The notes under the pieces are model-generated. The model worked only from the letters and a program-made list of their open reading frames with translations, did no database searches and was not told where the DNA came from. Below, one piece after another: positions 3,661 to 50,010 of a stretch of 64,000 bases of DNA (the first letter of the stretch is position 1; every line of letters begins with the position of its first letter). The DNA is from an uncultured Gemmatimonadaceae bacterium. Its GTDB lineage: Bacteria > Gemmatimonadota > Gemmatimonadetes > Gemmatimonadales > Gemmatimonadaceae. Both the position numbers and the translations under genes were made by a program. Location of the stretch: contig OY970320.1 of NCBI GenBank assembly GCA_963716745.1, positions 32,001 to 96,000 of the forward strand, read 5' to 3'.

Positions 3661-4023
3661 GTGTCCCATACGGTATTGGTCTGCGACGACGCGATCTTCA
3701 TGCGCACGATGATCTCCGACATCCTCCAGCAATCCGGCTTCGATGTGATCGGCGAAGCGGAGACGGGAGTGGAGGCCGTGGCGCAGTATCGCAAACTCAA
3801 GCCGGACCTCGTGACGATGGACATCGTGATGCCCGACATGGGCGGCATCGATGCCGTGCGCGAGATCACGAAGTTCGATCCGAACGCCCGGATCCTCATG
3901 TGCAGCGCGATGGGGCAACAGGCGCTGGTGGTCGAGGCGATCCAGGCGGGGGCGAAGGATTTCGTGGTGAAGCCGTTCCAGCCGAGCCGGGTGCTGGAGG
4001 CGGTGCAGCGGGTCCTCGGCTGA
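3661..4023 (+). CDS. cheY: CheY-like single-domain response regulator
   Basis: VLVCDDAIFMR, MDIVMPDMGG, MCSAMGQ, FVVKPF; GAGGTG RBS before the GTG start. Confidence 0.93.
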   Translation: MSHTVLVCDDAIFMRTMISDILQQSGFDVIGEAETGVEAVAQYRKLKPDLVTMDIVMPDMGGIDAVREITKFDPNARILMCSAMGQQALVVEAIQAGAKDFVVKPFQPSRVLEAVQRVLG

Positions 4024-4040
4024 CTTCCGGGGCCGCCCGC

Positions 4041-5903
4041 ATGGACCTCACGCGCTACGCCGATCTCTTCCTCACGGAGAGCCGCGAGCACGTCTCGGCG
4101 CTGAACCATCTCCTGCTCTCGCTGGAGCGCGCGCCGCGCGCCACGGAGCCGGTGGCGGGGATGTTCCGCGCGGTGCACACGGTGAAAGGCATGAGCGCGA
4201 CCATGGGCTACGGCGGCGTGACGGCGCTGGCGCACGAGATGGAGTCGTTGCTCGACCAGGTGCGGCAGAAAGCGCGCAAGGTGACGCCGGAGTTGATGGA
4301 CCTGCTCTTCAAGAGCGTTGACGCGCTCGAGAAGGCGATCGCGGCGGCGGTCGCGGGCACGAGTGATGATCCGGCGGCGCTCGTGATGGCGAAGACGCTG
4401 AAGGACTACGCCGAGGGGCGCCGCGCATTGGCGGGCGGCCGTCGCAAACCGCCCCCGAAGGCCGCGAAGTACAAGGGCAAGCGCGGCGTCGCGATCCGCG
4501 TGGTGCTCAATGACGGCATCGCGCTCAAGGGCGCGCGGGCGTTCCTCGTGGTGAAGCGCGCCGAGGACTTCGGGCGCGTCCTCGCGGTGGAACCGCCGAT
4601 CGACGCGCTGCAGCGCGAGGAGTTCGGCCGCGAGTTCATGATCCGTTTGGCGCCGAGCGTGGAGCCGTCGATCGCGGCGGAGGCGCTGCGCATGGCAGGC
4701 GATGTCGCGTCGGTGTCGATCGACGGCGCGGCGGTGAGCGACGCGCCGGAGAACGCGGCGCCGGGCGCGACGCGGCACGTGCGCATCGAGCTCACGCGTC
4801 TCGACGCGCTCATGAACCTCGTGGGCGAACTGGTGATCGCGCGCGGCCAACTGCAACAGCTCGCGGGCGTGACCGGCGATGCCGCGCTGGAGGAGACCGT
4901 CGCGCAGGGCGCGCGGCTCATCGGCGAGATGCAGGATGAGATCATGCGCTGCCGCATGGTGCCGGTGGCGCAGGTGTTCGACCGCTTCCCGCGCCTCGTG
5001 CGCGACGCGGCGCGCGCGTTGCACAAGGAGGTCTCGTTCACGGTGGAAGGGCAGGAGAGCGAACTGGACCGCTCGATGCTCGACGAGATCGGGGAACCGG
5101 TGATGCACTTGCTGCGCAATGCGGTGGACCACGGGATCGAGATGCCGGCCGAGCGCGAGGCCGCGGGCAAGCCGCGCGAAGGGGCGCTCAAGCTCTCGAT
5201 CTCGCGCGAACGCTCGGCGGTCACGATCCGCGTGAGCGACGACGGGCGCGGCATCGACCGCGCCCGCGTGCTGGCGAAGGCGCGCACGATGGGGCTGGTG
5301 CTGTCCACCGTGAAATCGCTGCCCGACGAAGAGCTGGTGCGGCTCATCTCGCGGCCGGGCTTCTCGACGGCCGAGCGCGTGACCGATCTGTCGGGGCGCG
5401 GCGTGGGGATCGATGTCGTGCTCACACGCGTGCGCGCGCTCGGCGGCTCGGTGGAGATCAGGACCGTGGCCGGGGAGGGCACGACCGTCACCGCGCGGCT
5501 GCCGCTCACGCTCGCGATCGTGCGCGCGATGCTCGCGCGCGTGGGTGAGGAGACGTACGCCGTGCCGATGACGCACGTGACCGAGACCGTGGAGCTCGAC
5601 GCCGCGGGCGTGCGCACCGTGCGCGGGCGCGAGGCGATCGTCCTGCGCGACGACGTGCTGCCGGTCGTGCGCCTCCGCAACCGGCTGTCGCTCGCGGCGT
5701 CGAGCGCGCCGATGCAGCAGGTGGTGATCGTGGAAGTGGGCGAACGCCACGCCGCGCTCGTGGTGGACGAACTCGCGGGACAGCAGGACATCGTGGTGAA
5801 GCAGTTCGACCCGGTGCGCGGCGGCATGCCGCTGTTCAGCGGCGCGACGATCCTGTCCGATGGGGCGCCGTCGCTGATCCTCGATGTCGGCAGCCTACTC
5901 TAG
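4041..5903 (+). CDS. cheA: CheA histidine kinase (HPt-P2-dimerisation-HATPase-CheW)
   Basis: MFRAVHTVKGMS (HPt His), LDALMNLVGELVI, HLLRNAVDHG, SDDGRG, GFSTA..SGRGVGIDVV, C-terminal CheW domain. Confidence 0.96.
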   Translation: MDLTRYADLFLTESREHVSALNHLLLSLERAPRATEPVAGMFRAVHTVKGMSATMGYGGVTALAHEMESLLDQVRQKARKVTPELMDLLFKSVDALEKAIAAAVAGTSDDPAALVMAKTLKDYAEGRRALAGGRRKPPPKAAKYKGKRGVAIRVVLNDGIALKGARAFLVVKRAEDFGRVLAVEPPIDALQREEFGREFMIRLAPSVEPSIAAEALRMAGDVASVSIDGAAVSDAPENAAPGATRHVRIELTRLDALMNLVGELVIARGQLQQLAGVTGDAALEETVAQGARLIGEMQDEIMRCRMVPVAQVFDRFPRLVRDAARALHKEVSFTVEGQESELDRSMLDEIGEPVMHLLRNAVDHGIEMPAEREAAGKPREGALKLSISRERSAVTIRVSDDGRGIDRARVLAKARTMGLVLSTVKSLPDEELVRLISRPGFSTAERVTDLSGRGVGIDVVLTRVRALGGSVEIRTVAGEGTTVTARLPLTLAIVRAMLARVGEETYAVPMTHVTETVELDAAGVRTVRGREAIVLRDDVLPVVRLRNRLSLAASSAPMQQVVIVEVGERHAALVVDELAGQQDIVVKQFDPVRGGMPLFSGATILSDGAPSLILDVGSLL

Positions 5904-5913
5904 GGGAGCGCGC

Positions 5914-6534
5914 ATGTCCGATCTTCTGTCGCTGACGAAAGTGGAACTCGACGCGCTCCGCGAGACGGCGAGCATCGGCGCCGGCCACGCCGCGACCGCG
6001 CTGTCGCTCATGACGAACAGCCGGATCATGATCTCGGTGCCGCACATCACGATCGCGGCGCTCGAGGACGTGCCGCAGCAGATCGCGGACGAGGAAGAGC
6101 CGATCGCGGCCGTCATGATGCAGATGCTCGGCGATCTCACGGGACGGTCCCTGCTCGTATTCCCGCGGGCCACGGCGCTGCGCCTCGCGCAGCTGATGCT
6201 GCGGCGGCCGCGCGACGGAACCGCCCCCTTCGCCGAGCTCGAGCAGAGCGCGCTCAAGGAGGCCGGCAATATCCTGAGCGGCGCGTATCTCAACGCGCTC
6301 AGCGATTTCCTGGGCCTCATGCTGCTGCCGTCGCCGCCGAGCCTCGTGGTGGACATGTCGGCCGCGGTGCTCACCACCGCGCACGCGCAGTTCGGCGCGG
6401 ACCGCGACATGGTGTTCGCGGTGGAGACGCAGTTCCTGTTCGAGGACCAGGCGGACCACCTGCGCGGCTTCTTCCTGCTGCTGCCCGACTTCGCGTCGTT
6501 GCGCGTGATCCTGCGCGCCATCCGGATCGCGTGA
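5914..6534 (+). CDS. cheC: CheC-family CheY-P phosphatase
   Basis: DALRETASIGAGHAATALS and SALKEAGNIL repeats; position directly after cheA. Confidence 0.9.
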   Translation: MSDLLSLTKVELDALRETASIGAGHAATALSLMTNSRIMISVPHITIAALEDVPQQIADEEEPIAAVMMQMLGDLTGRSLLVFPRATALRLAQLMLRRPRDGTAPFAELEQSALKEAGNILSGAYLNALSDFLGLMLLPSPPSLVVDMSAAVLTTAHAQFGADRDMVFAVETQFLFEDQADHLRGFFLLLPDFASLRVILRAIRIA

Positions 6535-9248
6535 ACAGCCCCTCGTCCCCCGTCTCGCAGCGCGACCGCGACATCCTGCGGTCGTTCGCGCGGCGCATCG
6601 ATCCATCGGATGCGGGGGCGCATAACAACCTCGGCGTGCTGTATTACAACAAGGGGATGTACGCCGAGGCGGTGTCGAGCTTCGAGCAGGCGCTGGAGCT
6701 GGATCCGAAGATGCAGGTCGCCCAGCGCAATCTCGAGGTCGCATACTTCAACACCGGCTACTACGACCGGCGCGTGGCCGAACTGCGAGATCGGCTGCGC
6801 TCGCATCCGCACGACCGCGACGCGCGCTGGGAGTTGGGACGCGCGTACGCCGCGCTCGGCGATGTGCCCGAAGCGGTGGCGGAGTTCACGGCGATCCTCG
6901 AGCATCATCCCGACGACGCCGGCGCCATCGTGCAGCTGGGTCTCGCGGAGAAGGCGAGCGGCGACCTCGAGCACGCGCAGCGCTGGTTCGAGCGCGCGCT
7001 GGCGCTCGAGCCGAAGAGCCCGCTCATGAGCTTCTACATCGGCGAAGTGCTGTACAACCGCGGGCTGAACGAGGAAGCGCTCGTCGCACTGCGCCGCTCG
7101 ATCGACATCAATCCCGACAACTCCGACGCGCACTATCTGCTCGGCTTCGTGCTGGGCGACCTCGGACGCCACGAGGAGGCGCGTGCCGCGACGAAGCGCG
7201 CGATCCAGCTCAATCCGTCGCTGTCGCGCGCGCAGGCGAATCTGTCGATCGACCGTTACAACGCCGCGAAGTACGAGGAGCTCGTGCCGCAGCGGCACGA
7301 GCGGCGGTCGTCGCAAATGGAGGTGGCCGCTGAGGGTGGCCTCGCGCACTACAACCTGGGCCTCGCGTTCCGGCAGAAGGGTTACTACGCGGAAGCGCTG
7401 CGCGAATACCGGCTCGCACTCGAGCGGGAGGAAGACCGCGCGCTGGTGCTCCAGGCGATGGCCGAGGTGCACCTGCTCAAGCGCGATCCCAAGTCGGCGA
7501 TCGAACTGTACGACCGCCTGCTCGAAGAGGAGAGTGAGAGCCCCAAGCTCTGGTGCGAGCGCGGGGTCGCGCTGCATCAGGAGGGTCGGCATCAGGAAGC
7601 CGCTGAGAGCTATCGTCGCGCGTTGTCGCTCGACGCGGCGTACGCCATCGCGCACAACAACCTGGGCGTCGCGGAATATCACGGCGGGAACACCGACGCG
7701 GCGATCGATGCCTTCCGCGCCGCGCTCGCGGCGCATCCGGGCTTCGTGAAGGCGTGGCTCAATCTCGCGCTGCTGCTCTATCAGGGAAAACGGCTCCAGC
7801 TCGCGCTCGAAGCGTACCGTCAGGGCCTCACCGTGGATCCGGAGCAGCCGGTCGCGTGGAACGGCATCGGTCTCGTGCTGGCGGAGCTCAAGAAGTACGA
7901 GGACGCGCGCAACGCGTTCGGGCGTGCGATCCACACGCGGCCGAACTATGCGGAGGCGCACTACAACCTGGGCTTCACGCTCTCGAACCTCGGCGATTTC
8001 GAAGGCGCGCTGCGCGCGACGCGGCGCGCGCTGGAGCTGGACCCGTTCTACGTGCGGCAGAAGTTCGAGCTCGCGATCGACCTCGAGTACGAGGATCCCG
8101 ATCTCTCGATCGCGCCCGCGCTCGGCAATGCGCAGCGCGTGGAGCAATCGGTGGAGACGTTCGCGTTCGACGCGGCGCGGCTCGATGCGCTCTTTACCGA
8201 GCTGAAGCCGCTCGCGCCGGCGCCGGTGGAGACGGCCGCCGTGCCGCTCGAGACGGCGTACGCCATGGCGGTGGAGTATCTGTCGAAGGGCATGCTCGAC
8301 CGCGCCGCGGCCGAAGTGAACCGCGCGCTGGTGCGCGGCGCGAACACGGGCGAGGGTCTGATCCTGCTGGGCGACATCTTCCTGCGGCAGGGGCTGCATG
8401 GCGAAGCGCTCGAGCGCTACAAGAATGCGCGGAGCGTGACGGCCAATGCGGCGCGCGCACTCGCCGGCGAGACGCGCGCGCTGCTGCTGCTGGGGCGCGC
8501 GGAGCAGGCGCGCGCGGTGGCCGAGGAACTGCTCATCGCGGATCCGGCGACAGTGGAATCGATCCTGCTCGTGGCGAGCGCGCGCGCCGATGCCGGCGAT
8601 CCCGCGGCGGCGCGCGAGCTGCTCAAGAACGCGCGCCGTCTCGCGCCCGCGCGCGCCGACGTCCTGCGGCAGTTCGGCGACGTGGCGCGCGCCGCGGGCG
8701 ATGTGGAGGGCGCGATCGCGGCATACAAGAACGCGCTCGACCTCGATCCCGACGTCGCAGTGGTGCACTACGAACTCGGGCGGTTGCTCGCCGAGAGAGA
8801 CGACGCCACGGGCGCCGAGACCGAGTTGCTCGCCGCGCTGGAGGCGGTGCCGACGTACGTGGAGGCCACCCTCGCGCTGGCGCAGGTGCGCCGCCGCTTC
8901 GGCCGCGCGAAGGACGCCGTGCCGCCGCTCGTGGACCTGCTGCGGCGCGATCCGTACAACGTGGAGGCGCTGCTCGCGCTCGCCGAGACGCTGCTCGAGC
9001 TGGACCGGCCGCGCGATGCGGCGATCTCGATCGAACGCGTACTGCGCTTCGACCCGCGGCACGTAGGCGCGCTCTTCTTCCACGGCGTGCTCCTCGCGGA
9101 CCAGCACCGCTACCGCGAGGCGATCGGGGAATGGGAGCGCGTGGTGGAGCTGGAGCCCGACGGCGAGTTCGCCAAGAACGCACGTCGCGAGTCGCGCACC
9201 GCGTCCGACCTGCTGCGGATCTTCCGCCACCGGCAGGAGGCGAGCTGA
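6531..9248 (+). CDS. Large cytoplasmic multi-TPR protein (905 aa)
   Basis: Many TPR repeats (AHNNLGVLYY, AHYNLGLAF, AWNGIGLVL...ALELDP); no signal peptide seen. Confidence 0.9.
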   Translation: MNSPSSPVSQRDRDILRSFARRIDPSDAGAHNNLGVLYYNKGMYAEAVSSFEQALELDPKMQVAQRNLEVAYFNTGYYDRRVAELRDRLRSHPHDRDARWELGRAYAALGDVPEAVAEFTAILEHHPDDAGAIVQLGLAEKASGDLEHAQRWFERALALEPKSPLMSFYIGEVLYNRGLNEEALVALRRSIDINPDNSDAHYLLGFVLGDLGRHEEARAATKRAIQLNPSLSRAQANLSIDRYNAAKYEELVPQRHERRSSQMEVAAEGGLAHYNLGLAFRQKGYYAEALREYRLALEREEDRALVLQAMAEVHLLKRDPKSAIELYDRLLEEESESPKLWCERGVALHQEGRHQEAAESYRRALSLDAAYAIAHNNLGVAEYHGGNTDAAIDAFRAALAAHPGFVKAWLNLALLLYQGKRLQLALEAYRQGLTVDPEQPVAWNGIGLVLAELKKYEDARNAFGRAIHTRPNYAEAHYNLGFTLSNLGDFEGALRATRRALELDPFYVRQKFELAIDLEYEDPDLSIAPALGNAQRVEQSVETFAFDAARLDALFTELKPLAPAPVETAAVPLETAYAMAVEYLSKGMLDRAAAEVNRALVRGANTGEGLILLGDIFLRQGLHGEALERYKNARSVTANAARALAGETRALLLLGRAEQARAVAEELLIADPATVESILLVASARADAGDPAAARELLKNARRLAPARADVLRQFGDVARAAGDVEGAIAAYKNALDLDPDVAVVHYELGRLLAERDDATGAETELLAALEAVPTYVEATLALAQVRRRFGRAKDAVPPLVDLLRRDPYNVEALLALAETLLELDRPRDAAISIERVLRFDPRHVGALFFHGVLLADQHRYREAIGEWERVVELEPDGEFAKNARRESRTASDLLRIFRHRQEAS

Positions 9249-10675
9249 TGGCGATCGAAGGCCCGCTCCGCGAACTCGGCATCCACGATGTGTTCCAGCT
9301 GCTGGACCTGAGCCGGAAGACCGGCACGCTCACGGTCACGTCGGTGCTGCGCGACAACCAAGGCACCGTGTACTTCGATCGCGGCGGCGTGCTGTCGGCG
9401 TCGATCAGGAGCAATCCGCACCGGCTGGGCGAACTGCTGCTGCGCGCCGGCAAGATCACCGAGGGCGATCTCACGCGCATGCGCGAGCAGCAGCGTCGCG
9501 AGGGGGACAAGCGTCAGCTCGGAGCGATCCTGGTCGAGGCCGGTGCGCTGTCGCGCAAGGAGCTCGAGCGCCAGGTGCGCATCCAGGTGGAAGAGGTCGT
9601 GTTCGAGATGATGTCGTGGCGCGAGGGCTTCTTCTCCTTCGAGGAGGGCCAGGTCGCGGACGCGCCGATCGAGGCGGACATCCGCATCTCCACCGAATCG
9701 CTGCTCATGGAGGGTGCGCGCCGCATCGACGAGTGGTCGCTCATCGAGGGCAAGGTGCCGAACCTCGGCGTGGTGCCGGTGCTCGCCACCATGGAGAGCG
9801 ATCACGCGGGCGCGCTCGATCTGTTGCCGAAGGAGTGGGAGGTGCTCGCGCAGATCGACGGCGCGCGCGATCTGCGCGAGATCTCGAGCAGCACGTCGAT
9901 GAGCGAGTTCGACGTGGCGCGCGTGATCTACGGTCTCGTGACGACCGGCATCGTGGAATTGCGGCCGGGCACGGGAACGCCACCGCCACCGCCCGCGGTG
10001 CCGCCGCGCCGTGCGACGCCGCCGGCCCGCGCCGCCGAGGCGCCGGATGTGGTGACACTGCCCGGTTCGCTGCTACACACGCCGTCGCTCGAACACACGG
10101 GCATGCACCGCGTGGCGGCGATCGCGGAACCGCAGGGCGTGCCGATCATCACGGACGCGCCGCCCCCCGCGCCACGCGCGTCGCCGCCGACGCCGCCGGC
10201 GCCCGCGCCGGCACCGCGCGCATCGCGCGCCACGCGCAATATGCGCAGCACCCGGCTGACGCAGACCGTGAGACTCGACGGCGACGACGCCGTCGCGCAT
10301 CTCGAGCGTGCCCACGCCGCGCTGCGCGACGGCGCCATCGAAGCTGCGGTGGCGGCCGCGACGGCCGCCGTTGACGCGAGCGACGGCTCCGTGGAGGCGC
10401 GCACGGTGCTGGCACGCGCGCAACTCAAGGCGGGCCTCGTGGACGAGGCGTTCGACACGGTGTGCGCTGCGCTCGAGCGGGATGCGCTCAACCCCGCGCT
10501 CTACCTGCTGCTGGGCGCGTGCGCCGCGTCGCGCGGTGCGCTCGCCGACGCGGTGGCCGGGTGGGAGCGCTACCAGCGGCTCGCGCCGGACGCGGCCGAC
10601 ACCTCGCGTGTGCGCGCGGTGGCGGACGCGGCGGCGCGCCTGCGCGACGCGATGAAGGAGCTCGGCGATGTCTGA
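9248..10675 (+). CDS. DUF4388-like protein with MshEN-like motifs, Pro-rich linker and C-terminal TPRs
   Basis: MAIEGPLRELGIHDVFQLL..SRKTGTL...WREGFFSF...LLMEGARRIDEW; internal RLGELLLRAG motif; start overlaps the upstream stop (TGATG). Confidence 0.8.
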   Translation: MAIEGPLRELGIHDVFQLLDLSRKTGTLTVTSVLRDNQGTVYFDRGGVLSASIRSNPHRLGELLLRAGKITEGDLTRMREQQRREGDKRQLGAILVEAGALSRKELERQVRIQVEEVVFEMMSWREGFFSFEEGQVADAPIEADIRISTESLLMEGARRIDEWSLIEGKVPNLGVVPVLATMESDHAGALDLLPKEWEVLAQIDGARDLREISSSTSMSEFDVARVIYGLVTTGIVELRPGTGTPPPPPAVPPRRATPPARAAEAPDVVTLPGSLLHTPSLEHTGMHRVAAIAEPQGVPIITDAPPPAPRASPPTPPAPAPAPRASRATRNMRSTRLTQTVRLDGDDAVAHLERAHAALRDGAIEAAVAAATAAVDASDGSVEARTVLARAQLKAGLVDEAFDTVCAALERDALNPALYLLLGACAASRGALADAVAGWERYQRLAPDAADTSRVRAVADAAARLRDAMKELGDV

Positions 10676-11514
10676 CGAGATCCGCCGCCTCAGCGACGAA
10701 CTCGCGCGCGACCCGTCGAGCCTCGTGTTCCTCCAGCTCGGCGAGGCGCTGCGGAAGGGCGGGCAGCTCGAGCTCGCGATGAAGGTGGCCATGCGCGGCC
10801 TCGAGCGGCACGCGCATAATGCCGACGCGCACGATCTCCTCGCGCGCATCTGCGTCGATCGCAATGAGCTCGAGCAGGCGTTCGACGAGTGGGACATGGT
10901 GCTGCGTCTCGCGCCGAATCACGTGGGTGCGCGCAAGGGGATGGGCTACGTGCTGTACAAGCAAGGCCGGCTCGAGGAGGCCGAGGATCATCTCGAGCGC
11001 CGCCGCATCGGGCGACCGGACCGATGCGTCGATCTCCACCGCGCTCCGCATGGTGCGCCGGCTGCTGCGCTACGCGCGCCTCGCCGGCAACGGCGCGAGC
11101 GATCCGGGCCCGGCCGAACTCGAAGCGGCACAGCGGCGCGTGGAGGAAGAGGCGCACTTCCTATTCGCCGACATCCTCGGCGACAGCGAGCAGACGGCAC
11201 TGCTGCTGAATTCCGATGGCCTCGTGACCGCGGGCGCGTATCTCTCGAGCGACGGTGAGGATGTCGCGCAGGAAGTGGGTGCGCAGCTCTCGGGCGTGCG
11301 CGACGACGCGCAGCGCACCGTGCGCCACCTCGATCTGGGGGAGTGGAAGCTCGTGCTGTACGAGACCGACGTCGCCGTGGTCGCGATCGCGCCGGCGCTC
11401 GACGACTCCATGGTGCTCGTGGCCGCGTCGCACGTGATGCCGCTCGGATTCGTGCGCCGCGTGCTCGACCGCTGCGTGCGGCGCGCCACGATGTGGCTCT
11501 CGGAGGTCGGATGA
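10668..11514 (+). CDS. TPR + roadblock/LC7-like fusion protein (apparent frameshift at ~10999)
   Basis: N-terminal TPRs in ORF 10668. Removing one base joins it to the frame encoding ALLLNSDGLV...LGEWKLVLYETD...LGFVRR, a roadblock-like pattern. Confidence 0.7.
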
Positions 11515-11858
11515 GCTCGCCCTTCGAGGATCTCCTCGCGACGCTCATCCGCCAGCGCGGCGTGCTCGGCTGCCTCGTGGTGGGCGAGCGCGACGGCATC
11601 ATCGTGGACTCCAACGTCCAAGTAGGCGTGCCGGAGAGCGTCGTCGCGGCGCTGGCGGCCGCGCTCTTCCGCCGCGCGCGCCTCTCGTCGCAGGCGGCGG
11701 GGCTCGGGCAAGTGACCTTCCTGCAGCTCGAGGCCACCGACGGCCACGTGTGCGTGGTCGGGCGCGAAGGGCTGGTGATCGTGACGCTCGCCGAGCCGCG
11801 CGCGCACATCGGGCTCATCCGCGGCGCGATGCTGCAGAGCGTGGAGGCACTCACGTGA
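11511..11858 (+). CDS. Roadblock/LC7 (MglB/MglC-like) protein
   Basis: 115 aa; GVLGCLVVGERDGIIV...AGLGQVTFLQLE...IGLIR; upstream of mglA. Confidence 0.8.
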   Translation: MSSPFEDLLATLIRQRGVLGCLVVGERDGIIVDSNVQVGVPESVVAALAAALFRRARLSSQAAGLGQVTFLQLEATDGHVCVVGREGLVIVTLAEPRAHIGLIRGAMLQSVEALT

Positions 11859-12370
11859 AGACGCACGTCGCCGAGCCGTGGGTCGAGGCGCCGCTGCAGG
11901 AATTCGTGGACGACGCGCGGGTGCTGTTCGCGCTCCTGCTGCATCCCAGCGGGCAGGTGCTCGGGCAGTTCGGCTTCACGCGCGCGGTGGATGTGATGGC
12001 GGCGTGCGCGCTCGCCGCCGGCATCCACGCGTCGGCGGGCCAGCTCGGCAAGGAGCTCGACGGCAAACCCTTCCGCGAGCTGTACCACGCGGGGCGCGAG
12101 CGCCATGTGTTCATCGGCGAGGTGCGCACCGCGCGCGAAGCGTTCATCTTCCTGACGGCGTTCGGCGACGAGAGCTCGCTCGGTCTCGTGCGCGTGTTCT
12201 TCGGCAATCTCTCGGCGCGGCTGGCCACCGTCGTGCCGCCGCGCGCCGACGGGCCGCCGCTCGCCGCGGCGAGTCTCGAGCAGGATCTCGCGCGGAGTCT
12301 CGCGGCGCTGTTCGGCCGCGTGCCCGCGGGTGCTGGCAACGGGGACGGGTCCGTCCCCCCGACTTCCTGA
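11855..12370 (+). CDS. MglB-like roadblock protein (putative GAP for MglA)
   Basis: [16 protein letters not shown]...FRELYHAG...[11 protein letters not shown] resembles MglB; immediately upstream of mglA. Confidence 0.75.
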
Positions 12371-12377
12371 GCGCGAC

Positions 12378-12986
12378 GTGTCCCTCGTCAACTACGCCAC
12401 CCGCGAGATCACCTGCAAGATCGTCTACTACGGCCCCGGCCGTTCGGGGAAGACGACCAACTTGCATTACATTTACGAGCAGGTGCCGCGCGACCGCAAA
12501 GGGAAGATGGTCTCGCTCGCGACCCAGACCGATCGCACGCTCTTCTTCGACTTCCTGCCGTTCGACCTCGGGATGATCTCCGGTTTCACGACGCGCTTCC
12601 AGCTCTACACGGTGCCGGGCCAGGTGTACTACCACACCACTCGGAAGCTCGTGCTCCAGGGCGCCGACGGCGTGGTGTTCGTGGCCGACAGCCAGGCGCG
12701 CCAGCTGCAGGAGAACGTCGAGAGCATGCAGGACCTGCACACGAACGCCGCCGAGCACGGGATCGATGTGCGCACCATGCCGCTGGTCATCCAGTACAAC
12801 AAGCAGGACCTGCCGTCCGAGATGATCCTGGGCGTGCCGGCGCTGGAGGATGCGCTCAACTTCCGCGGCGTGCCGTCGTTCGCCGCCGATGCGCTGCACG
12901 GCGCCGGCGTGTTCGAGACGCTGCGGGGCATCGCCGAACTCGTGCTCCGGCGCCTGAGTGCCGCGGCGCCCGCGGGGAACCGGTGA
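12378..12986 (+). CDS. mglA: MglA-family small Ras-like GTPase
   Basis: [26 protein letters not shown] (G1), [10 protein letters not shown] (G2 with intrinsic Arg), LYTVPGQ (G3), NKQD (G4). Confidence 0.93.
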
Positions 12987-14914
12987 CGGCCGAACTGGAT
13001 CCGCGCTACCGCTTCGAGAACTACATCGTCGGATCGGCCAATCGTCTCGCGGTCTCCGCCGCGAAGGCGGTGGCCCAGGCCCCGGGCACCGCGTACAACC
13101 CGCTGTTCATCTACAGCAGCTCGGGGCTGGGCAAGACGCACCTCATGATCGCCGTCGGCCACATGGCGATCCAACTGCAGCCCAACCTGCGGTCGCTCTA
13201 CATCACGCTCGACGAGTTCGTGGAGGAACTCACCGCCGCCGTGTCGTCGGGCACGATCGAGAATTACAAGCAGCGCTTCCAGGACGTGGACATCCTGCTG
13301 CTGGACGACGTCCAGTTCCTCGCCGGCCGGCGCGAGACGCAGAGCGAGATGCTGCGGCTGTTCAACGCGCTGCAGCGCGCGGGCAAGCAGATCATCCTCA
13401 CGAGCGACCGCCCACCGAACGAGATCGCCGACCTCGACGAGCGCCTCATCTCGCGCTTCGCCGGCGGACTCGTGGTGGACGTCGGCCTGCCCGATTACGA
13501 GACGCGCGTGGCCATCCTGCGCGCGAAGTGCGAGGAGCGGAAGGAGACGTTCGAGACCGGCGTGCTGGACGAGGTCGCGCGCATGAACTTCTCGAACGTG
13601 CGCGAGCTGCAGGGCGCGCTCAACCGCCTCATCGCGTGCCAGTCGCTCGGCGAGGCCGAGGTCACGGTGCGGAACGTGCGCGAGTTGCTCGGTGAGAAGC
13701 CCGACGCCGGCCCCGTGATGGCGCAGGCGCCCGCGCGGGGCGAGGAATTCGCGAGCTTCCTCAGCGACCTGAGCGATGTGGTGGCGCAGCACATCGACAC
13801 GTGGCGCGTGCGCGTCGTGGAAGCGATGACCTACTGGCATCAGCTCGGTTACGGCACCACGCTGCTCGAGCGCACGCTCGAACAGTCGGAGGAGCCGGAT
13901 GTCGACGCGCTGTTGCAGGGCTACGAGGCGAACATCGCGCGGCTCCGCGCGCTCGAGCAAGAAGCGATGCGCTACGATCCGGTGCTCGCCGAGTCGGAGG
14001 TGTTCAAGGATCCCGAGCGCGTGGGCGAGGCGGAATTGCTCGTGGCGCGGCAGATGGGCGGCGCGGAACCGCCGCCCGGCCCCGATCCCGAGCTGACGCG
14101 TGCCACGTTCGAGGTCGGGCCATCGAACCAACTCGCGGTCCACGCGGCCGACACGGTCGTGCTCGAGCCGGGCAGAAAGTACAATCCGCTCTTCCTGTAC
14201 GGCCCGCCGGGCGTGGGCGTCACGCACCTGCTGAACGCGCTCGCGAACGAGATGATCACGGCGGGCGGCGGCAAGCGGCCCGTCGCGTGCGTGAACGCGC
14301 AGCAGTTCATCGACGAACTGATCGTCGCGCTGCAGGAAGGCACGATCGAGCGGTGGCGGGCGCGCTACCGCCTCGTGGACGCGCTCCTGATCGACGATGT
14401 GCAGCTCTGCGCGACGGGCGAGCGCACGCAGGAAGAACTCTTTCACGTGTTCAACAGCTTGTACTCCGCCGGCAAGCAGGTGGTGCTCGGTGCCGACCGC
14501 GCCCCGCGCCAGATCGAGCGTCTCGAGGACCGGCTGCGCTCGCGCTTCGAGGGCGGACTCGTGGTGGAGATCCAGCCGCCCGACCATTCGCTGCGCGAGA
14601 AGCTGTACGCGCGCATGTTCGCCGCCGCGGGACAGCACGCCGATCGCGTGCTCGTGGATTTCCTGTCGGCGCGCGCCGTGGCGAACGTCGCGGAACTCGC
14701 GGCCACGGTCGACCGGCTCGTGAAGGCGGCGGGCGTGGTGGGCGTTCCGCTCAATGCATCGTTCGCGCGCAAGGAGCTCGAAGGCGGCGGCATCGCGCCC
14801 GCGCCGGCCCGCGCGATCGACGGGCGCGAGGCCGACAGCTTCTTCCTCGACGAGGAGAAGGTGGTCTGGGACTGGCCTGACGTGGCTGGCCGCGCGATCG
14901 AGGACCTCCGGTAA
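12983..14914 (+). CDS. DnaA/Hda-related protein with two tandem AAA+ (DnaA domain III) modules; no domain I or IV
   Basis: Twice: F....G..N.LA, YNPLF.Y, Walker A, LL.DDVQ, F..FN.L...GKQ, DR.P, RL.SRF.GGLVV. No C-terminal DnaA HTH. Confidence 0.85.
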
Positions 14915-16541
14915 TGGCGATCAAGGGCAGTCTCAAGGAGGCGTCGCTCCCCGACGTCCTGCAGCTCCTCGCCATGGGCCAGAAGACCGGCTGCCTGTCG
15001 GTCGCCGACCGCAACAACTTCGGCTACATCTACTTCGACCGCGGCCGCATCTCGTACGCGTCGATCGTGAACCGGCGCGACCGGCTGGGCGACCTGCTCG
15101 TGAAGCACGGCGTCGTGACGCAGCTCGAGCTCGACGTCGCGATCGAAGCGCAGAGCAAAGCGCACCGCGGCAAGCGCCTCGGCGAGATCCTCATCGAGCA
15201 GCAGATCCTCACGCGCGAGGAGCTGCACCGCTACATCCGCGTGCAGATCGAGGAAGCCGTGTACTACCTCTTCACTTGGACGCAGGGGACGTTCAGCTTC
15301 GAGGCGGACATGCGCCCCGAGGAGCACGACGTCCTCGTGTCGATCAATCCCGAATCGCTGCTGCTCGAAGGCGCGCGGCGCGTGGACGAGTGGAGCCTGA
15401 TCGAGAAGAAGGTGCCGAGCTTCGACATCATCTTCGAGGTGGACCGGACGCGGCTGGCGCAGAGCGAAGCGCAGCTCACGCCGGCACAGGAGCAGCTGAT
15501 CCCGCTGATCGACGGGCGGCGCGACGTGACGACGCTCATCGATGCGTCGGGCATCGGCGAGTTCGAGGTAGGGAAGGCGCTCTACGCCCTCGCGACCGCC
15601 GGCTATCTGCACCGCGCCGGCAAATCTCGCCCCGTGGACGACGGCGTGCGCGAGGCGCGCGTGGAGGAGCACCGCAATCTTGGCGTCGCGTTCTACAAGA
15701 CGGCGATGTTCGAGGAGGCCACGCGCGAGTTCCGGCGCGTGGTGGAGCTGAATGAGACCGACGTGCCGGCGCGCTTCTATCCTGGGGCTCGTCGCGATGC
15801 GGGAAGGGAAGTGGAGTGAGGCGGTGCTCACGCTCCGCGAGGCGGGCGCGCAGCCCAACGTGCGCCCGGCGATTTTCCACAATCTCGCCTACGCGCTCGA
15901 GCGCATGGGCCACTACGACGACGCGCGCGAGGCGCTGCAGGAGGCGATCCAGCGCGGCGGCCAGGAAGATCCGCGCATCCGCACGTCGCTCGGCGTGCTC
16001 GCGCTCAAGAGCGGCGACGTGGATGAGGCCGATGCGCTCGCTCACGGCGTCGCGTCTCCTCTGGGCCAAGCGGTCGCCGTCGCCGGCGTGGTTCCACTAC
16101 GCCGCGCTCGCGGCGGCGCTCACCGGCGAACTCGACCGCGCGCTCGAGATCGTGGCCGAAGGCGTGGAGCTGCACCCGCACGCCGCCGTGCTCTACAACA
16201 CGCTCGCCGCGGTGCACGAGCGCCGCGGCGACATGGCCGCCGCCGCGCGGGCTGCGGAAAGCGGGCTGCACGAGGACGGCTCGATCCCGCAGCTCTTCAA
16301 GAATCTCGGCGACTGCCTCTACCGCGCGTCGCGCTACGACGAGGCGCTCGAGGCGTTCCAGCGGGCGGTGAAGCTCGATCCCGCGCTGGGCGACGATGTG
16401 TACTTCAAGCTCGGCAACATCCGGTTCAAGTGGCAGGAGAAGGAGCAGGCGCTCGCGTACTGGGAGCGCGCGCTGGCCCTGAATCCCGAGAACGAGGTGA
16501 TCCGCACGAATCTCGATCTCGTGCGGACGATGCCCGAATGA
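14914..16541 (+). CDS. Second DUF4388-like protein with MshEN-like motifs and C-terminal TPR array (apparent frameshifts at ~15781 and ~16040)
   Basis: [19 protein letters not shown]...LLLEGARRVDEW; TPRs continue through three frames, each joined by removing one base. Confidence 0.78.
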
Positions 16542-17360
16542 TCGCCGGCGCTCCGATGGCCGACGCCGATTTCGCGGCGCTCACGGCGAAGATCACGCGT
16601 GAGCGCGGCTTCGGCTGCGCGAGCTATAAGGAGAAGTGTCTGCGCCGCCGGATCGCGGTGCGCATGCGCGCGCGCGGCGTCCACACCTATCGCGACTACG
16701 CGCGCGTGCTCGACAGCGACGGCGCGGAGTACGAACGTCTTCTGGACGCGCTCACGATCAACGTGACGCGCTTCTTCCGGAATCCGGAGGCGTGGGAGGC
16801 GCTGGACGCGTTGGTGCTCGGACCCCTCATGACCGCGGGGCGGACGCCGCTGCGGATCTGGAGCGCCGGGTGCGCCTCGGGCGAGGAGCCGTACACGCTC
16901 GCGATCCTGCTGCAACGCCGCGCCACGCTGCTCGGCAAGAAGGCGCGGGCCGTTCGAGATCGTGGCGACCGACATCGATGCCGCGAGCCTCGAAGCCGCC
17001 GGGCGCGCCGTGTACGAGTCGTCGACGCTCGTGGACATGCCCGCCGATCTGCGCTCCGCGTACGTGACGGGCGACGGTCCCTTCACGATCGGTGCCGCGG
17101 TGCGCGCATCCGTGCGCCTGCGGCGCCACGATCTGCTGGGCGACGCGCCTCCCGGCGGTCCGTTCGATCTGATCGTCTGCCGCAACGTCACGATCTATTT
17201 CGACCGCCGCTCGCAGGAGGCGCTGCTCGAGCAATTCCACGGCGCACTCGCGCCCCTGGGCGTGCTCTTCCAGGGCAAGGTGGAGACGCTCACGGGCGCG
17301 GCGCGCGCGCGATTCGAGATCGTGGATGCGCGTGAACGCATCTTCCGCCGCGCCTCGTGA
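16538..17360 (+). CDS. cheR: CheR methyltransferase (apparent frameshift at ~16945)
   Basis: TINVTRFFRN, IWSAGCASGEEPYTLA, then ATDID and DLIVCRNVTIYFD in the next frame. Confidence 0.92.
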
Positions 17361-17839
17361 AGGAGATCCGCGTGCACGTCGCCGAGGCCGCCGTCGCTCA
17401 GGGGGACGCGATCATCGCCAGCGTGGGGCTGGGGAGCTGCGTCGCCATCGTGCTGCACGACGCCACCGCGAAGGTGGGCGGAGTCGCGCACGTGCTCCTG
17501 CCGAGCGACTCCATGGCGCGCGACCGCAGCAACCGCGCGAAATTCCCCTCGAGCGCGGTGCCGCTGCTGCTGGAGCAGATGCGCGCGCTCGGCGCGCTCG
17601 ACCGCCGGATCTCGGCGCGGCTCGTGGGCGGCGCGAGCATGTTCACCTCGCTCCTCTCGTCGGGCGGCATGCAGATCGGCGAGCGCAATCTGCTCGCGAG
17701 CCGCAAGGCGCTCGCGCTCGCGCGCATCCCGGTGATCGGCGAGGATGCCGGCGGCGGGCACGGCCGCAGCGTGTACCTCCACACCGGCGACGGGCGCCTG
17801 GAAGTGCGCTCGATGGCGAGAGGCAATGTCCTCCTCTAG
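17357..17839 (+). CDS. cheD: CheD receptor glutamine deamidase
   Basis: GLGSCVAI (catalytic Cys), AHVLLP (His), GGASMF, IGERN, EDAGG. Confidence 0.93.
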   Translation: MKEIRVHVAEAAVAQGDAIIASVGLGSCVAIVLHDATAKVGGVAHVLLPSDSMARDRSNRAKFPSSAVPLLLEQMRALGALDRRISARLVGGASMFTSLLSSGGMQIGERNLLASRKALALARIPVIGEDAGGGHGRSVYLHTGDGRLEVRSMARGNVLL

Positions 17840-18950
17840 TTCGCTCCGCACCGTCCTCGTCGTGGACGACAGCGCGTTCATGCGCAAGATCGTCGTGGAT
17901 CTCATCGACGGGTCGGGCGAATTCCGCGTGATCGGCACCGCGCGCCATGGCGCCGACGCGCTGAAGAAGGTGCGCGCGCTGGAACCCGACATCGTGACGA
18001 TGGACATCGAGATGCCGGAGCTCGATGGGCTCGCCGCGCTCGAGCGGATCATGCGCGATTCGCCGCGCCCGGTCGTGATGCTCAGTGGCGCCGCCACCGG
18101 CGGCGCACACGATCCCGTGCTCCGCGCGCTGGAGCTCGGCGCCGTGGACTTCCTGCGCAAGCCGTCGGGTCCGATCAGTCTCGACCTCGCCACGGTGCGC
18201 GAGCCGTTGCTCGAAGCGCTCCGCGCCGCGGCCGAAGTGAATCTCCGCGGCATGACCGCGCTCTCCGAGACGGTGGCCGGCGCCTCCGCGGCGAAGCATC
18301 CCGCGGCGGAGGGCGCGGCGTCGTGCGTCGTCGCGATCGCCAGCTCCACGGGAGGCCCGCGCGCGCTCGCCGAGGTCATCCCCGGCTTGCCGCGCACGCT
18401 CGACGCCGCGGTCGTGGTCGTGCAGCACATGCCCTCCGGATTCACGCGGAGTCTGGCCGAGCGATTGAACGCGCACAGCCGCTTGCGGGTGAGCGAGGCA
18501 CAGGACGGACAGCTGCTGCGGCGCGGTCATGTGTACGTCGCGCCGGGCGGCCGCCATCTGCGTCTGCGCGCGGGCACGGGTGGCGTACTACTCGCGCTCG
18601 ACGACACGCCGCCCGTGTGGGGCGTGCGCCCCGCCGCGGATCCGCTCTTCCGCTCGGCGGCGGAGTGCCTCGGCAACGCGGTCATCGGGATCGTGCTCAC
18701 CGGCATGGGCCGCGATGGCGCCGAAGGGTTGCGCGCGATCCGCGACGCCGGCGGCACCGGCATCGCGCAGGACCGCGCGACGTCGATCATCTTCGGGATG
18801 CCGCAGGCGGCGGCAATGGCGGGCGGCGCGACGCGTGTCCTGCCGCTCACGGAGATCGCCGCGGCCGTCGCCGAGATCGTCGCGCTGCGGCGCTCCGACA
18901 TCACCGCGCCGCGCGCCCGGCGCACGGTGGCCCGCAAGGAGGCGCCATGA
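17826..18950 (+). CDS. cheB: CheB methylesterase with N-terminal receiver domain
   Basis: VVDDSAFMR...MDIEMP; SSTGGP, VQHMP, LTGMGRDG catalytic motifs. Confidence 0.95.
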   Translation: MSSSSSLRTVLVVDDSAFMRKIVVDLIDGSGEFRVIGTARHGADALKKVRALEPDIVTMDIEMPELDGLAALERIMRDSPRPVVMLSGAATGGAHDPVLRALELGAVDFLRKPSGPISLDLATVREPLLEALRAAAEVNLRGMTALSETVAGASAAKHPAAEGAASCVVAIASSTGGPRALAEVIPGLPRTLDAAVVVVQHMPSGFTRSLAERLNAHSRLRVSEAQDGQLLRRGHVYVAPGGRHLRLRAGTGGVLLALDDTPPVWGVRPAADPLFRSAAECLGNAVIGIVLTGMGRDGAEGLRAIRDAGGTGIAQDRATSIIFGMPQAAAMAGGATRVLPLTEIAAAVAEIVALRRSDITAPRARRTVARKEAP

Positions 18951-19414
18951 GTCTCATCGACGTTACCCATGGCGCTCCGCTCACGGGACTCGCGGAATTC
19001 CTGCTGTTCCGCGTCGGCAAGGAGTACTTCGCCATGCCGCTCGCGAACGCGGAGGAGGCGGTAGAGCGTCTCGAACGTCACTCGCTCCCCGGCATGCCGC
19101 GCGACATGGCGGGCGTCGCACAGTACCGGGGCATGCGGCTCCCGGTGTACGGCGCGGAGCAAGTGCTCGAGGTGGCCCGCGATGGAGGCGACGAGGATGT
19201 CACGCTCGTCGTGCGCGGGAAGGGTGGCAAGGTGGGCGTCATCGTGGATGATGTGGAGGATGTGATCATCGTGGATCTCTCGAGCGTACGCGCCGTGCCC
19301 GGCGCCACCATTGGCGAACCCGTGCTCTCGGGCGTGATCCCGCGTGGCACCGAACTCGTGGCGGTGTGCGATCCCGACGCGCTCGTGCGCGCTTGCCTCG
19401 GAGCCCGCGCATGA
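18947..19414 (+). CDS. cheW: Divergent CheW-like protein
   Basis: LLFRVGKEYFA...LPGMP..MAGV..YRG..LPV...VGVIVDDV. Confidence 0.75.
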   Translation: MSLIDVTHGAPLTGLAEFLLFRVGKEYFAMPLANAEEAVERLERHSLPGMPRDMAGVAQYRGMRLPVYGAEQVLEVARDGGDEDVTLVVRGKGGKVGVIVDDVEDVIIVDLSSVRAVPGATIGEPVLSGVIPRGTELVAVCDPDALVRACLGARA

Positions 19415-23991: not shown

Positions 23992-24942
23992 ATGACGGGT
24001 ACGGCGGTGGACGGCAGCGGTTGGGCGAGCGAGTACCACGCGCCGGTGCTCGCGGCGGAGGTCCTCGCGCTGCTCGAGGGTGCGCACCGTGTCCTCGACG
24101 GCACGCTCGGCGGAGGCGGACATGCGCTCGCGCTGCTCGAGCGTGGCGCCCACGTCACCGGCTTCGACCGCGACCCGCGCGCGATCGCCGCGGCGCGTGA
24201 CCGGCTGGCCGCGTTCGCTGCGCGTGGCGCCTTCGAGGCGACTCAGGCGAATTTCTCGGACGAGGATGCGGTGGCCGTCGCGGCCGGGCCCGGATTCGAT
24301 GCGGTGCTGCTCGACCTCGGCGTCTCCTCCCGGCAGTTGGACGACGAGTCGCGCGGATTCTCCTTTCGCGCCGGCGCACCGCTCGACATGCGCATGGGCG
24401 ACGACAGTCTCGAGAGCGGTGCGGAGTGGCTCGACCGCGCGGACGAGACGGAACTGACCCACGCGTTCCGCGAGTACGCCGATGAACCGCGGGCCGGCCG
24501 CTTGGCGCGCGAGGTCATGCGGCGACGGGCCACGAGGCCCTACGCGACGAGCGACGATCTCGTGGGCGCGATCCGGGGCGCACTGGGGCCGCGCACCGGG
24601 CCGCCCGATTTCGCGCGCCTCTTCCAGGCGGTGCGGATCGCCGTGAATGGCGAGCTCGAGGGGCTCGAGCGCGCGCTGCCGATGCTGCGCGACCGGCTCG
24701 TGCCGGGCGGGACGCTCGCGGTGATCAGCTATCACTCGGGCGAGGACCGTCTCGTGAAGCACGCGTTCCGGGAGTGGAGCGCGGCCTGTGTGTGCCCGCC
24801 GCGGCAGCCGGTGTGCACCTGCCGCGGCCACGCGCTGGGCACGACGCTCACGCGCAAGGCCGTCGTTGCGGGCGCACTCGAGATTGCAAGCAACCCGCGC
24901 GCTCGCAGCGCACGGCTCCGCGCATGGCGAAAGGGCGCGTAA
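23992..24942 (+). CDS. rsmH: 16S rRNA m4C1402 methyltransferase
   Basis: HAPVL, DGTLGGGGH, DLGVSS.QLD..RGFSF, PLDMRM, SYHSGEDR, NPRARSARLR. Confidence 0.96.
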   Translation: MTGTAVDGSGWASEYHAPVLAAEVLALLEGAHRVLDGTLGGGGHALALLERGAHVTGFDRDPRAIAAARDRLAAFAARGAFEATQANFSDEDAVAVAAGPGFDAVLLDLGVSSRQLDDESRGFSFRAGAPLDMRMGDDSLESGAEWLDRADETELTHAFREYADEPRAGRLAREVMRRRATRPYATSDDLVGAIRGALGPRTGPPDFARLFQAVRIAVNGELEGLERALPMLRDRLVPGGTLAVISYHSGEDRLVKHAFREWSAACVCPPRQPVCTCRGHALGTTLTRKAVVAGALEIASNPRARSARLRAWRKGA

Positions 24943-25298
24943 CGGGAGGCGGCACGACGCCGCCGCGCTCGCAGGCGTCGCGCACGGGGAAGCGTCGCCG
25001 TGCGGGCGGCGCCGCACCGCGCGGCCGCACGTGGGTCGCGCTCGTGATCGCCGGTTTCCTCCTGCTGCTATTGGGCGTCATTTGGAGGAGGGCAGTGGGC
25101 CGTGCGCAGGCGCTCGAGCTGCAGGTGCTCGAGGCGCGGCGCACGCAGTTGGACGCACAGCGTTCGCAGCTCGAGAGCGACATCCGCGATCTCTCGAGCA
25201 GGGCGAAGCTGGCGCCGGCTGCCGAGAGCCGCCTCCACATGCACGTTCCGAACGACACCGAGCTCGTCATCCTTCGCCGGACGCCGCGCACGCCCTAA
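24924..25298 (+). CDS. ftsL: FtsL-like cell division protein (start uncertain)
   Basis: Basic N-terminus, single TM, coiled coil; lies between rsmH and ftsI. Confidence 0.7.
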   Translation: MAKGRVTGGGTTPPRSQASRTGKRRRAGGAAPRGRTWVALVIAGFLLLLLGVIWRRAVGRAQALELQVLEARRTQLDAQRSQLESDIRDLSSRAKLAPAAESRLHMHVPNDTELVILRRTPRTP

Positions 25299-34907: not shown

Positions 34908-34980
34908 GAGACGCACGACTCGTTCCTCCTCACGTACTTGAGAGATTCATCGCGCGAGCGCCGTATATTCGTCGCGCCGA

Positions 34981-38323: not shown

Positions 38324-38376
38324 CCGCCGACAGTCTGTCGCTGTTGCAGCCTCACGTCCTTGCCGCGAAACACATG

Positions 38377-38581
38377 AATCACGGTTCATGTTTAACGGGA
38401 TGCGGCGGATGACAACGCGGATCGATCCCCTGTAAGAACGACGCCCCCGCGCCGAGCACGGTTTCTGTTTTTGTAGTTAACAACAGAATCACTAACGATT
38501 CGAGTTCCAGGAGGCGTCGCCGGCACGCGGAGTCGATCCGCGTTGTCATCCGCCGCATCCCCTTAAACATGAACCGTGATT
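38377..38581. repeat. 49-bp near-perfect inverted repeat flanking a 107-nt spacer with AT-rich core
   Basis: 38377-38425 vs 38533-38581: 48/49 complementary. Confidence 0.9.
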
Positions 38582-38644
38582 TCCGCCTGGGCGCCCCAGC
38601 CTAGGCTGGCGCACGGGCCCAGCCCCGAAATGGCCCTCCCAGAG

Positions 38645-38801: not shown

Positions 38802-38819
38802 TCCGGAGCTCTCCTCGCC

Positions 38820-49973: not shown

Positions 49974-50010
49974 TCCCGGCTATCACACGATTCGTTCCGG
50001 AGAGTCTGTC

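Follow-up and report, generated by a model that had tools for sequence, protein, structure and literature searches.

The replication initiator DnaA has an AAA+ module of the initiator clade, its domain III. Hda and HdaA, related regulators by which DnaA is inactivated, are DnaA-type AAA+ proteins that have no DNA-binding domain, carry an arginine finger and consist of a single module (the NCBIfam profile has 226 positions). Hda features at its amino terminus a beta-clamp-binding motif with a QL[SD]LF-like consensus. Other AAA+ assemblies, such as the clamp loader and ORC/Cdc6, combine degenerate nucleotide sites with arginine fingers that act in trans, and p97 and NSF carry two AAA+ modules, D1 and D2, in tandem. 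The gene described here, named DnaA2x, occupies positions 12983..14914 (forward strand) of a window of 64,000 nucleotides, the whole stretch of DNA that was analysed, which belongs to an uncultured Gemmatimonadaceae bacterium (GCA_963716745.1, contig OY970320.1, positions 32,001 to 96,000). It codes for a tandem DnaA-type AAA+ protein without DnaA domains I and IV, and its genomic context is made of mglA, PATAN and chemotaxis-type (che) genes instead of dnaN and the replication origin oriC. DnaA2x belongs with DnaA and Hda, and its context is new for proteins of this kind. It is tentatively read as an ATP switch or scaffold, asymmetric and derived from DnaA, that serves an MglA polarity module, an assignment whose chances fall a little short of even.

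Elsewhere, the MglA/MglB polarity module has been described in Myxococcus, Bdellovibrio and Thermus. The partners of MglA named for Myxococcus xanthus in the accessible parts of the literature (SgmX, RomR/RomX, MglB and MglC) resemble DnaA2x in being encoded with, or acting on, MglA/MglB, and TPR and Roadblock proteins are present in the module; in contrast to DnaA2x, none of the known partners named there is an AAA+ ATPase. According to the available part of PMC4316618, some mglA genes have PATAN genes nearby and Gemmatimonadetes possess a group 1 MglA; no DnaA-like gene is mentioned there beside mglA. The literature that was searched holds no description of the DnaA2x family, and its tandem architecture appears undescribed.

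Architecture of DnaA2x

DnaA2x is an intact open reading frame (ORF) coding for 643 amino acids. Its GTG start codon shares four nucleotides (GTGA) with the stop of the upstream mglA ORF, and its TAA stop overlaps by one nucleotide with the ATG of the next gene (TAATG). Family PF00308 (Bac_DnaA) matches the protein in two stretches (Pfam, E 2.8e-109), while DnaA_N (PF11638) and Bac_DnaA_C (PF08299) are absent among the 10 Pfam families that match it at E<=0.01. The alignment to DnaA domain III begins at residue 3-5, leaving no room for a domain I, and only 43 residues follow module 2. Unlike DnaA2x, the tandem or canonical comparison proteins P0172, P0253, P0263 and P0268 contain PF08299. DnaA2x thus differs from DnaA in having two modules per chain and no domain I, II or IV, and also in the addition of a helical linker and of a carboxyl-terminal tail with a WxWP motif. 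Over 213 amino acids the modules share 38% identity (E 6.6e-49), and no second DnaA-like segment was found in the 64-kb window besides DnaA2x.

Two unequal AAA+ modules

Module 1 (residues 3-238, positions 12989..13696, forward strand) is a complete DnaA domain III-like AAA+ module according to its motifs, a Foldseek search and a gapless alignment. The best Foldseek match of DnaA2x is domain III of Bacillus subtilis DnaA (8bv3_A), which superposes with a target-normalised TM-score (TMt) of 0.94 and a root-mean-square deviation (rmsd) of 1.7 Å at 44% identity, and residues 5-236 align to 8btg_A, the same domain, without gaps (E 6.9e-62). The module has the motifs SSSGLGKT (45-52), LLLDDV (105-110), RLISRF (154-159) and NVRELQG (205-211). 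Like DnaA it possesses Walker A and B, the equivalents of box VII R281/R285, sensor 2 and the AID-2 leucine, the last of which is present in both modules. Each of the sites K51 (Walker A), D108/D109 (Walker B), R154/R158 (box VII) and R207 (sensor II) is kept in 116/116 full-length close homologues, and so are the aspartate and the arginine of sensor I.

The contacts that DnaA makes with single-stranded DNA and with its neighbours in the oligomer are distributed otherwise; the roles of the corresponding residues (H motif, B motif, AID-1 and AID-2) are taken from the E. coli DnaA data in the available part of PMC5742627. In module 1 of the 116 close homologues the H-motif position is occupied by N (59), H (35) or T (21), the B-motif position is always glutamate (E118) and the AID-1 position carries Q (59), H (34), A (9) or S (7). 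DnaA, in contrast, has the H, B and AID-1 residues.

The first glycine of the module 1 P-loop (13115-13138, residues 45-52) is replaced by serine (SxSGLGKT) in 114/116 close homologues, while 56 deep representatives of the family have G (32), S (15) or A (9) at this position. This Walker A variant, with serine for glycine, is unusual; in all other respects the module appears fully active.

Module 2 (about residues 365-600, positions 14075..14782, forward strand) is also a DnaA-type AAA+ module, and its nucleotide site is degenerate as judged from motifs and conservation. Its motifs are GPPGVGVT (407-414), LLIDDV (468-473), RLRSRF (517-522) and NVAEL (568-572). The Walker A lysine is replaced by Val413 and the sensor II arginine by Ala570, in difference from DnaA, while Walker B and RLRSRF are intact. 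Across the 116 close homologues Walker B is nearly invariant (first D 116, second D 115), as is box VII (R517 116, R521 115); sensor I is loose (D 62, R 65) and the sensor II position is R in 28, A in 54, S in 14, P in 7 and C in 4. The equivalents of the DnaA contact residues are all retained, namely I447 (H motif), R481 (B motif), R463 (AID-1) and L526 (AID-2), each in 116/116, with a looser pattern of the H and B equivalents in the 56 deep representatives (I or V in 27/56, R481 in 34/56). It would appear from these residues that an ATP-competent module 1 has shed the single-stranded DNA and oligomer contacts of DnaA, which an ATP-poor module 2 has retained. The inactivation of module 2 is likewise read from its residues and is to be taken as probable.

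Val413 is encoded by GTC (14219..14221). The valine is also present in the loci L001-L005, always as GTC, and the remaining 78 Walker A matches to the two modules of the family in 80 loci are all AAG or AAA lysine codons; the codon pattern gave 84 matches in total, including some module 1 sites and one unrelated site. In the 116 close homologues this column holds K in 102, V in 12, I in 1 and R in 1, and the valines are confined to the clade of the window protein (P0001-P0015 and P0092). Val413 is genuine and no read error, and the change from lysine to valine is recent, local and clade-specific and not a family trait.

These data bear on an interpretation of the locus made earlier from the DNA letters, hereafter the sequence-only reading. 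It had described a tandem DnaA AAA+ protein without domains I and IV, with four catalytic motifs in module 1 and a module 2 that lost the Walker A lysine and sensor II arginine and kept Walker B and the arginine finger; all of this holds, as does its argument that the lysine-to-valine change is no sequencing error. Its condition that the residue pattern be conserved holds in part: among the close homologues the module 2 sensor II arginine is lost well beyond the window's clade, and the change of the lysine to valine is limited to that clade.

With one apparently competent and one probably degenerate site, and with two AAA+ modules per chain as in type II proteins, DnaA2x recalls the clamp loader, ORC/Cdc6, p97 and NSF. 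It differs from p97, NSF and ClpB since its modules are DnaA-type and not of the classic clade, and ring formation is not expected. Foldseek matches of DnaA2x to p97 and Rix7 are poor, with query-normalised TM-scores (TMq) of 0.25-0.30 and rmsd values of 24-28 Å.

Linker, tail and model of the chain

The modules are joined by a family-specific helical linker domain (about residues 255-360, positions 13745..14062, forward strand), delimited from AlphaFold2 (AF2) models and conservation. Folded alone, residues 253-367 gave a mean predicted local distance difference test (pLDDT) score of 86.9 and a predicted TM-score (pTM) of 0.75, with five helices of at least four residues within 273-359 and a sixth one, of lower confidence, at 254-266. 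In a fold search of the PDB with this model none of the 30 hits listed reached E<=0.001 (best E 3.2), and an Atlas search with the linker returned no usable match.

The carboxyl terminus is a conserved tail (residues 619-643, positions 14837..14911, forward strand) with the consensus FFLDxEKVVWxWP....RxIEExR, located in DnaA2x as [13 protein letters not shown]. Among the 56 deep representatives E625 is kept in 51, K626 in 48, W631 in 53 and P632 in 51. The tail is the best conserved region of the protein, with a mean pairwise identity of 0.77 against 0.73 for module 1, 0.59 for the linker and 0.69 for module 2. These values indicate purifying selection on the whole chain, and module 2 is not decaying.

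AF2 modelling of the entire protein with 46 homologues yielded a mean pLDDT of 82.8. The confident parts are the AAA+ modules (about 5-235 and 370-600) and the helical domain in between, while residues 239-256 and those from 602 to the carboxyl terminus have low confidence, with values of about 42-54 in the tail.

The DnaA2x family and the origin of its modules

A word-indexed search listed 120 homologues with 56-97% identity to DnaA2x; together with the query, 116/121 proteins have at least 630 amino acids. Organism names among the listed close homologues are Gemmatimonadaceae or Gemmatimonas in 15/15 cases, and the named members of two distant subfamilies, represented by P0128 (47% identical, 6 named members) and P0171 (32% identical, 4 named members), are all Gemmatimonadales. 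All 25 homologues with an organism name thus belong to Gemmatimonadota. An exhaustive search of representative sequences gave 20,576 matches at E<=0.001, mostly ordinary DnaA, and two modules were found in 88/151 proteins when P0001 was taken with the best 150 representatives. Species genomes were scanned with the pattern DxE[KR][VT][VI]W[DE]W, derived from a five-sequence alignment of the tail, which confines the scan to relatives with this type of tail within Gemmatimonadota; 198/228 of its matches encode a relative of DnaA2x. Hundreds of full-length homologues exist.

A FastTree phylogeny of 139 module sequences groups the second modules of 58 proteins in one clade and their first modules in another, each with support 99, and places three canonical DnaAs outside both. 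IQ-TREE recovered the module 1 and module 2 clades in a 75-row subset with SH-like approximate likelihood ratio (SH-aLRT) supports of 95 and 99. The separation of the two clades shows that both modules stem from one ancient internal duplication, older than the diversification of the core family. In the module tree the two modules of P0172, a protein with a domain IV, pair with each other, as do those of P0248, and P0139/P0142/P0168/P0184 form a separate tandem group. This tree suggests that tandem DnaA modules arose several times independently. The very long P0164/P0165 (1,876-1,990 amino acids) are an unrelated tandem-DnaA lineage with an N-terminal MshEN domain for cyclic di-GMP (c-di-GMP), and P0200, a member of the core family, has a carboxyl-terminal receiver domain in place of the tail. 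Overall, the further forms of tandem Bac_DnaA comprise MshEN with two modules, tandems with an added receiver domain or Bac_DnaA_C, and plain tandems whose tails are different.

The unequal fate of the two nucleotide sites is seen across the 56 deep representatives. The Walker A lysine is present in 55 first and 42 second modules, the Walker B aspartate pair in 54 and 40, the arginine finger in 38 and 43 and the sensor II arginine in 49 and 36. On the tree of these representatives the module 2 lysine changed at least five times and the whole module 2 site at least seven times, while the module 1 site is kept in 53/56 and lost in 3. In several lineages Walker A and B of module 2 are wholly erased and RLRSRF is retained. 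A constant first site and a dispensable second one are a recurrent property of the family.

A conserved MglA and chemosensory operon

The genes from cheA to cheW, DnaA2x among them, are on one strand with ends that overlap or nearly touch. The gene immediately upstream of DnaA2x (12378..12986, forward strand) is a true mglA, coding for a small Ras-like GTPase that matches M. xanthus MglA (5ymx_A) over query residues 18-211 with E 2.9e-72; its start at 12378 was deduced from this alignment, and its stop overlaps the DnaA2x start, as the sequence-only reading had noticed. It is preceded by the gene of an MglB-like Roadblock/LC7 protein (11855..12370, forward strand; PF03259; E 9.6e-07 to M. xanthus MglB, 6h5b_B), by a second Roadblock/LC7 gene (11511..11858, forward strand; PF03259, E 7.3e-06, with weak matches to Roadblock structures in the PDB) and by a TPR-Roadblock fusion (10668..11514, forward strand). 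The fusion is split in the window, with TPR and Robl_LC7 in different frames, while in 8/8 relatives checked it is one stop-to-stop frame of 285-461 codons. Further upstream there is a gene for a PATAN (DUF4388)-TPR protein (9248..10675, forward strand; PF14332, E 1e-32, plus TPR), and a TPR protein of 905 amino acids is also found among the genes upstream of DnaA2x.

Downstream, DnaA2x is followed by a second PATAN (DUF4388)-TPR gene (14914..16541, forward strand; PF14332, E 1.1e-39) which carries an MshEN-like motif and is frameshifted, its ORF having 301 amino acids in the window against 542-544 in 8/9 relatives checked. MshE (5htl_A) matches its product with E 3.2e-06. The helical insert of this protein (14914-15780, residues 54-114) scores 48.8 bits with NF053729, whose cut-off is 38, and the insert of the upstream PATAN protein (9248-10672, residues 60-109) stays below it with 32.5 bits. 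The PATAN-TPR proteins may be receptors of c-di-GMP.

The array is headed by cheA and a cheC/cheX-like gene (3900..6534, forward strand; Pfam Hpt, P2, H-kinase_dim, HATPase_c and CheW domains; CheC/CheX) and ends with cheR, cheD, cheB and cheW (16538..19414, forward strand). CheW was assigned with Pfam, and cheR, cheD and cheB were named by inspection of the ORF translations; cheR is frameshifted in the window and a single ORF in 8 relatives. The che-type array (3900-19414) has no gene for a methyl-accepting chemotaxis protein (MCP) receptor, and its sole gene with a receiver domain is cheB.

This order was compared in 80 loci from 80 assemblies, all titled Gemmatimonadota, that carry the best 80 of the 198 relatives. 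Counting loci with enough flanking sequence, mglA is immediately upstream of DnaA2x in 68/70, a PATAN-TPR gene immediately downstream in 76/76, three Roadblock genes upstream in 49/55, and cheD and cheB within 4.5 kb downstream in 59/60. The synteny is phylum-wide. Genetic linkage of DnaA2x with mglA and an mglB-like gene is thus conserved, as expected of an effector or regulator of MglA, and the link to mglA, which had led the sequence-only reading to suggest that the protein may be an MglA effector, is strong at the level of this gene order, where its support lies.

Possible functions of DnaA2x

The reading of DnaA2x as a repurposed ATP switch is founded on its lack of a DNA-binding domain and its fixed place in a polarity and chemosensory operon. 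On this reading the protein would not be a replication initiator, nor a regulator of the Hda type, but a Gemmatimonadota-specific component fixed in an MglB-MglA-DnaA2x-PATAN/TPR module of a Che-type operon. The receiver fusion in P0200, the MshEN fusions in P0164/P0165 and the MshEN-like PATAN neighbour also point to signalling.

Module 1, from its residues, would be the working site for ATP binding and hydrolysis, while module 2 would be a conserved, catalytically degenerate partner that supplies an arginine finger and DnaA-type interface residues. It is proposed that the chain acts, because of this combination, as a built-in asymmetric AAA+ pair. The ATP state may control its conformation and its head-to-tail self-assembly, which would be open and not ring-shaped. 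The linker and the carboxyl-terminal WxWP peptide could be docking sites, with MglA-GTP and/or the neighbouring TPR/PATAN proteins as the likeliest partners, and an ATP timer would in this way be coupled to the GTPase polarity switch, with inputs from c-di-GMP and the Che kinase. The process served may be polarity, motility on surfaces, or growth and division at the poles. A more specific and doubtful proposal is that MglA-GTP, with c-di-GMP acting via the PATAN proteins, gates the assembly of an open oligomer like that of DnaA, which might form on single-stranded nucleic acid. In Gemmatimonadota such an oligomer would organise cell polarity, movement on surfaces or growth and division at the poles, and it might also link polarity with the chromosome.

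If the ATP-switch reading is correct, no relative of DnaA before DnaA2x would have been found to act outside the control of replication, and MglA would gain a partner of a new class. The DnaA/Hda family would then extend beyond replication, its initiator ATPase core having been duplicated, made asymmetric and rewired into signalling. An ATPase would be added to the MglA/MglB polarity module, and the protein would offer a testable entry into the cell polarity of the poorly studied Gemmatimonadota.

Several observations weigh against this reading. Canonical DnaAs (P0253, P0263 and P0268) score 231-239 bits against module 1, which gives only 142 bits with module 2; module 1 is nearer to real DnaA than to its own partner, and co-assembly with DnaA is therefore conceivable. 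The AF2 model of the whole chain does not fix the mutual orientation of the modules (pTM 0.44). The H- and B-motif residues of module 2 are kept in the close family, which fits a role with nucleic acid as well as one in pure signalling. The module 2 site was tested for association with the module 1 arginine finger, and the fingers of both modules with each other, which gave seven independent pairs with median p of 0.5-1; the module 1 finger is kept in 17/20 proteins with a dead module 2 site and in 21/36 with an intact one, counts that do not represent independent events. The operon has no MCP or CheY gene, and gene order alone is no proof of MglA binding.

An unlikely alternative is an Hda-like regulator or cap that docks on DnaA-ATP oligomers by means of DnaA-type interfaces. 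There it would either trigger hydrolysis with an arginine finger or keep the filament from growing, and MglA might control this action. The close match of module 1 to B. subtilis DnaA domain III, the higher scores of canonical DnaAs than of module 2 against it, the arginine fingers of both modules, the AID-2 leucine in each and the AID-1 arginine with the H and B motifs in module 2 are all compatible with docking on DnaA. The Hda models, however, score below their cut-offs on the 643-residue tandem (TIGR03420 161.8 vs 194.8, NF005982 68.1 vs 268, NF051883 54.5 vs 300 bits), and four regular expressions built on the consensus of the clamp-binding motif found no match anywhere in the protein. 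Module 1, the DnaA-like one, has lost the H motif, the B motif (E118, 116/116) and AID-1, and the linker domain and tail have no counterpart in DnaA. A Pfam scan of 35 further ORFs of the window detected no dnaN, the operon contains no replication gene, and the gene order conserved around DnaA2x involves mglA, PATAN and che genes and not dnaA/dnaN. Gene context and a named distribution restricted to Gemmatimonadota also distinguish it from Hda/HdaA. For these reasons the idea of the sequence-only reading that the protein caps or inactivates DnaA filaments, and with it the replication-control reading, is unsupported, and nothing in the sequence or its surroundings appears to tie DnaA2x to replication.

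Equally improbable, as formulated, is a nucleic-acid-bound scaffold or positioning ATPase, whose modules would assemble on single-stranded DNA or another nucleic acid via the H and B residues of module 2 and anchor or place the complexes for chemosensing and polarity with respect to the chromosome. Both modules align to DnaA domain III without large gaps, which implies that the initiator-specific insertion is kept in each, I447 and R481 are invariant in the close homologues, and the che operon lacks a membrane receptor gene. On the other side, the H and B residues are kept only in part in the deep family, and DnaA2x has no domain for binding double-stranded DNA. This explanation overlaps partly with the asymmetric ATP switch or scaffold favoured here, of which it is a close variant.

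It is very improbable that DnaA2x is a second, unconventional replication initiator or a helicase loader of the DnaA, DnaC or IstB type, as public names of its homologues imply. The DnaA equivalog model TIGR00362 (NCBIfam) gives 516.6 bits, above its cut-off of 343.9, but it does so because two partial matches, one per module, add up, and each covers only profile positions 102-336 of 437. Domains I and IV are absent, the models for IstB (NF038214, 103.5 vs 200 bits), DnaC (NF005931, 30 vs 357 bits) and DnaI (NF006505, 62.1 vs 228 bits) are far below their cut-offs, and the window scan found no transposase or helicase gene adjoining DnaA2x. The readings as a true DnaA and as an IstB/DnaC helper were rejected on these grounds.

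A decaying duplicate or assembly artefact without a function of its own, an idea to which the frameshifts in neighbouring genes and the catalytic residues lost from module 2 might lend colour, is hardly credible given an intact ORF, hundreds of full-length homologues, relatives encoded at most pattern matches in species genomes, a module 2 and tail as conserved as reported above, a duplication older than the family's diversification and the conserved codon 413 in L001-L005. An anti-phage defence ATPase was also rejected: PADLOC gave only weak P-loop matches for DnaA2x (best DrmD, E 1.4e-06), with no stretch passing, and none for its neighbours.

Annotation of the family

Many homologues are named "chromosomal replication initiator protein DnaA" in JGI records, while NCBI records use "DnaA/Hda family protein". 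Homologues of DnaA2x are likely misannotated systematically in Gemmatimonadota. As they can carry the DnaA name and DnaA2x passes the TIGR00362 cut-off, annotation, origin finding and dnaA-based rotation of genomes could be misled in this phylum.

Other features of the window

Genes split over two or three frames are found at 10668-11514 (the TPR-Roadblock fusion), 14914-16541 (the downstream PATAN-TPR gene), 16538-17360 (cheR) and 42825-44919. The last one is probably recG, with its wedge/DEAD and Helicase_C/RecG_dom3_C domains in different frames. The splits look like indel errors of the assembly or signs of recent pseudogenes, and DnaA2x itself is an unbroken ORF. The ORFs 40079-41869, 49894-51345 and 51342-52475 (596, 483 and 377 amino acids) match no Pfam family at E<=1e-05. 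A division and cell wall (dcw) cluster (23992-40025) lies a few kb downstream of the che array and includes mraW, ftsI, murE, murF, murD, ftsW, murG, murC, ftsA and ftsZ. A MiaB-like radical SAM protein (UPF0004 and Radical_SAM), encoded at 54896-56515, has a carboxyl-terminal ComFB domain; the available part of PMC12448109 describes ComFB as a recently recognised receptor family for cyclic dinucleotides (c-di-NMP).

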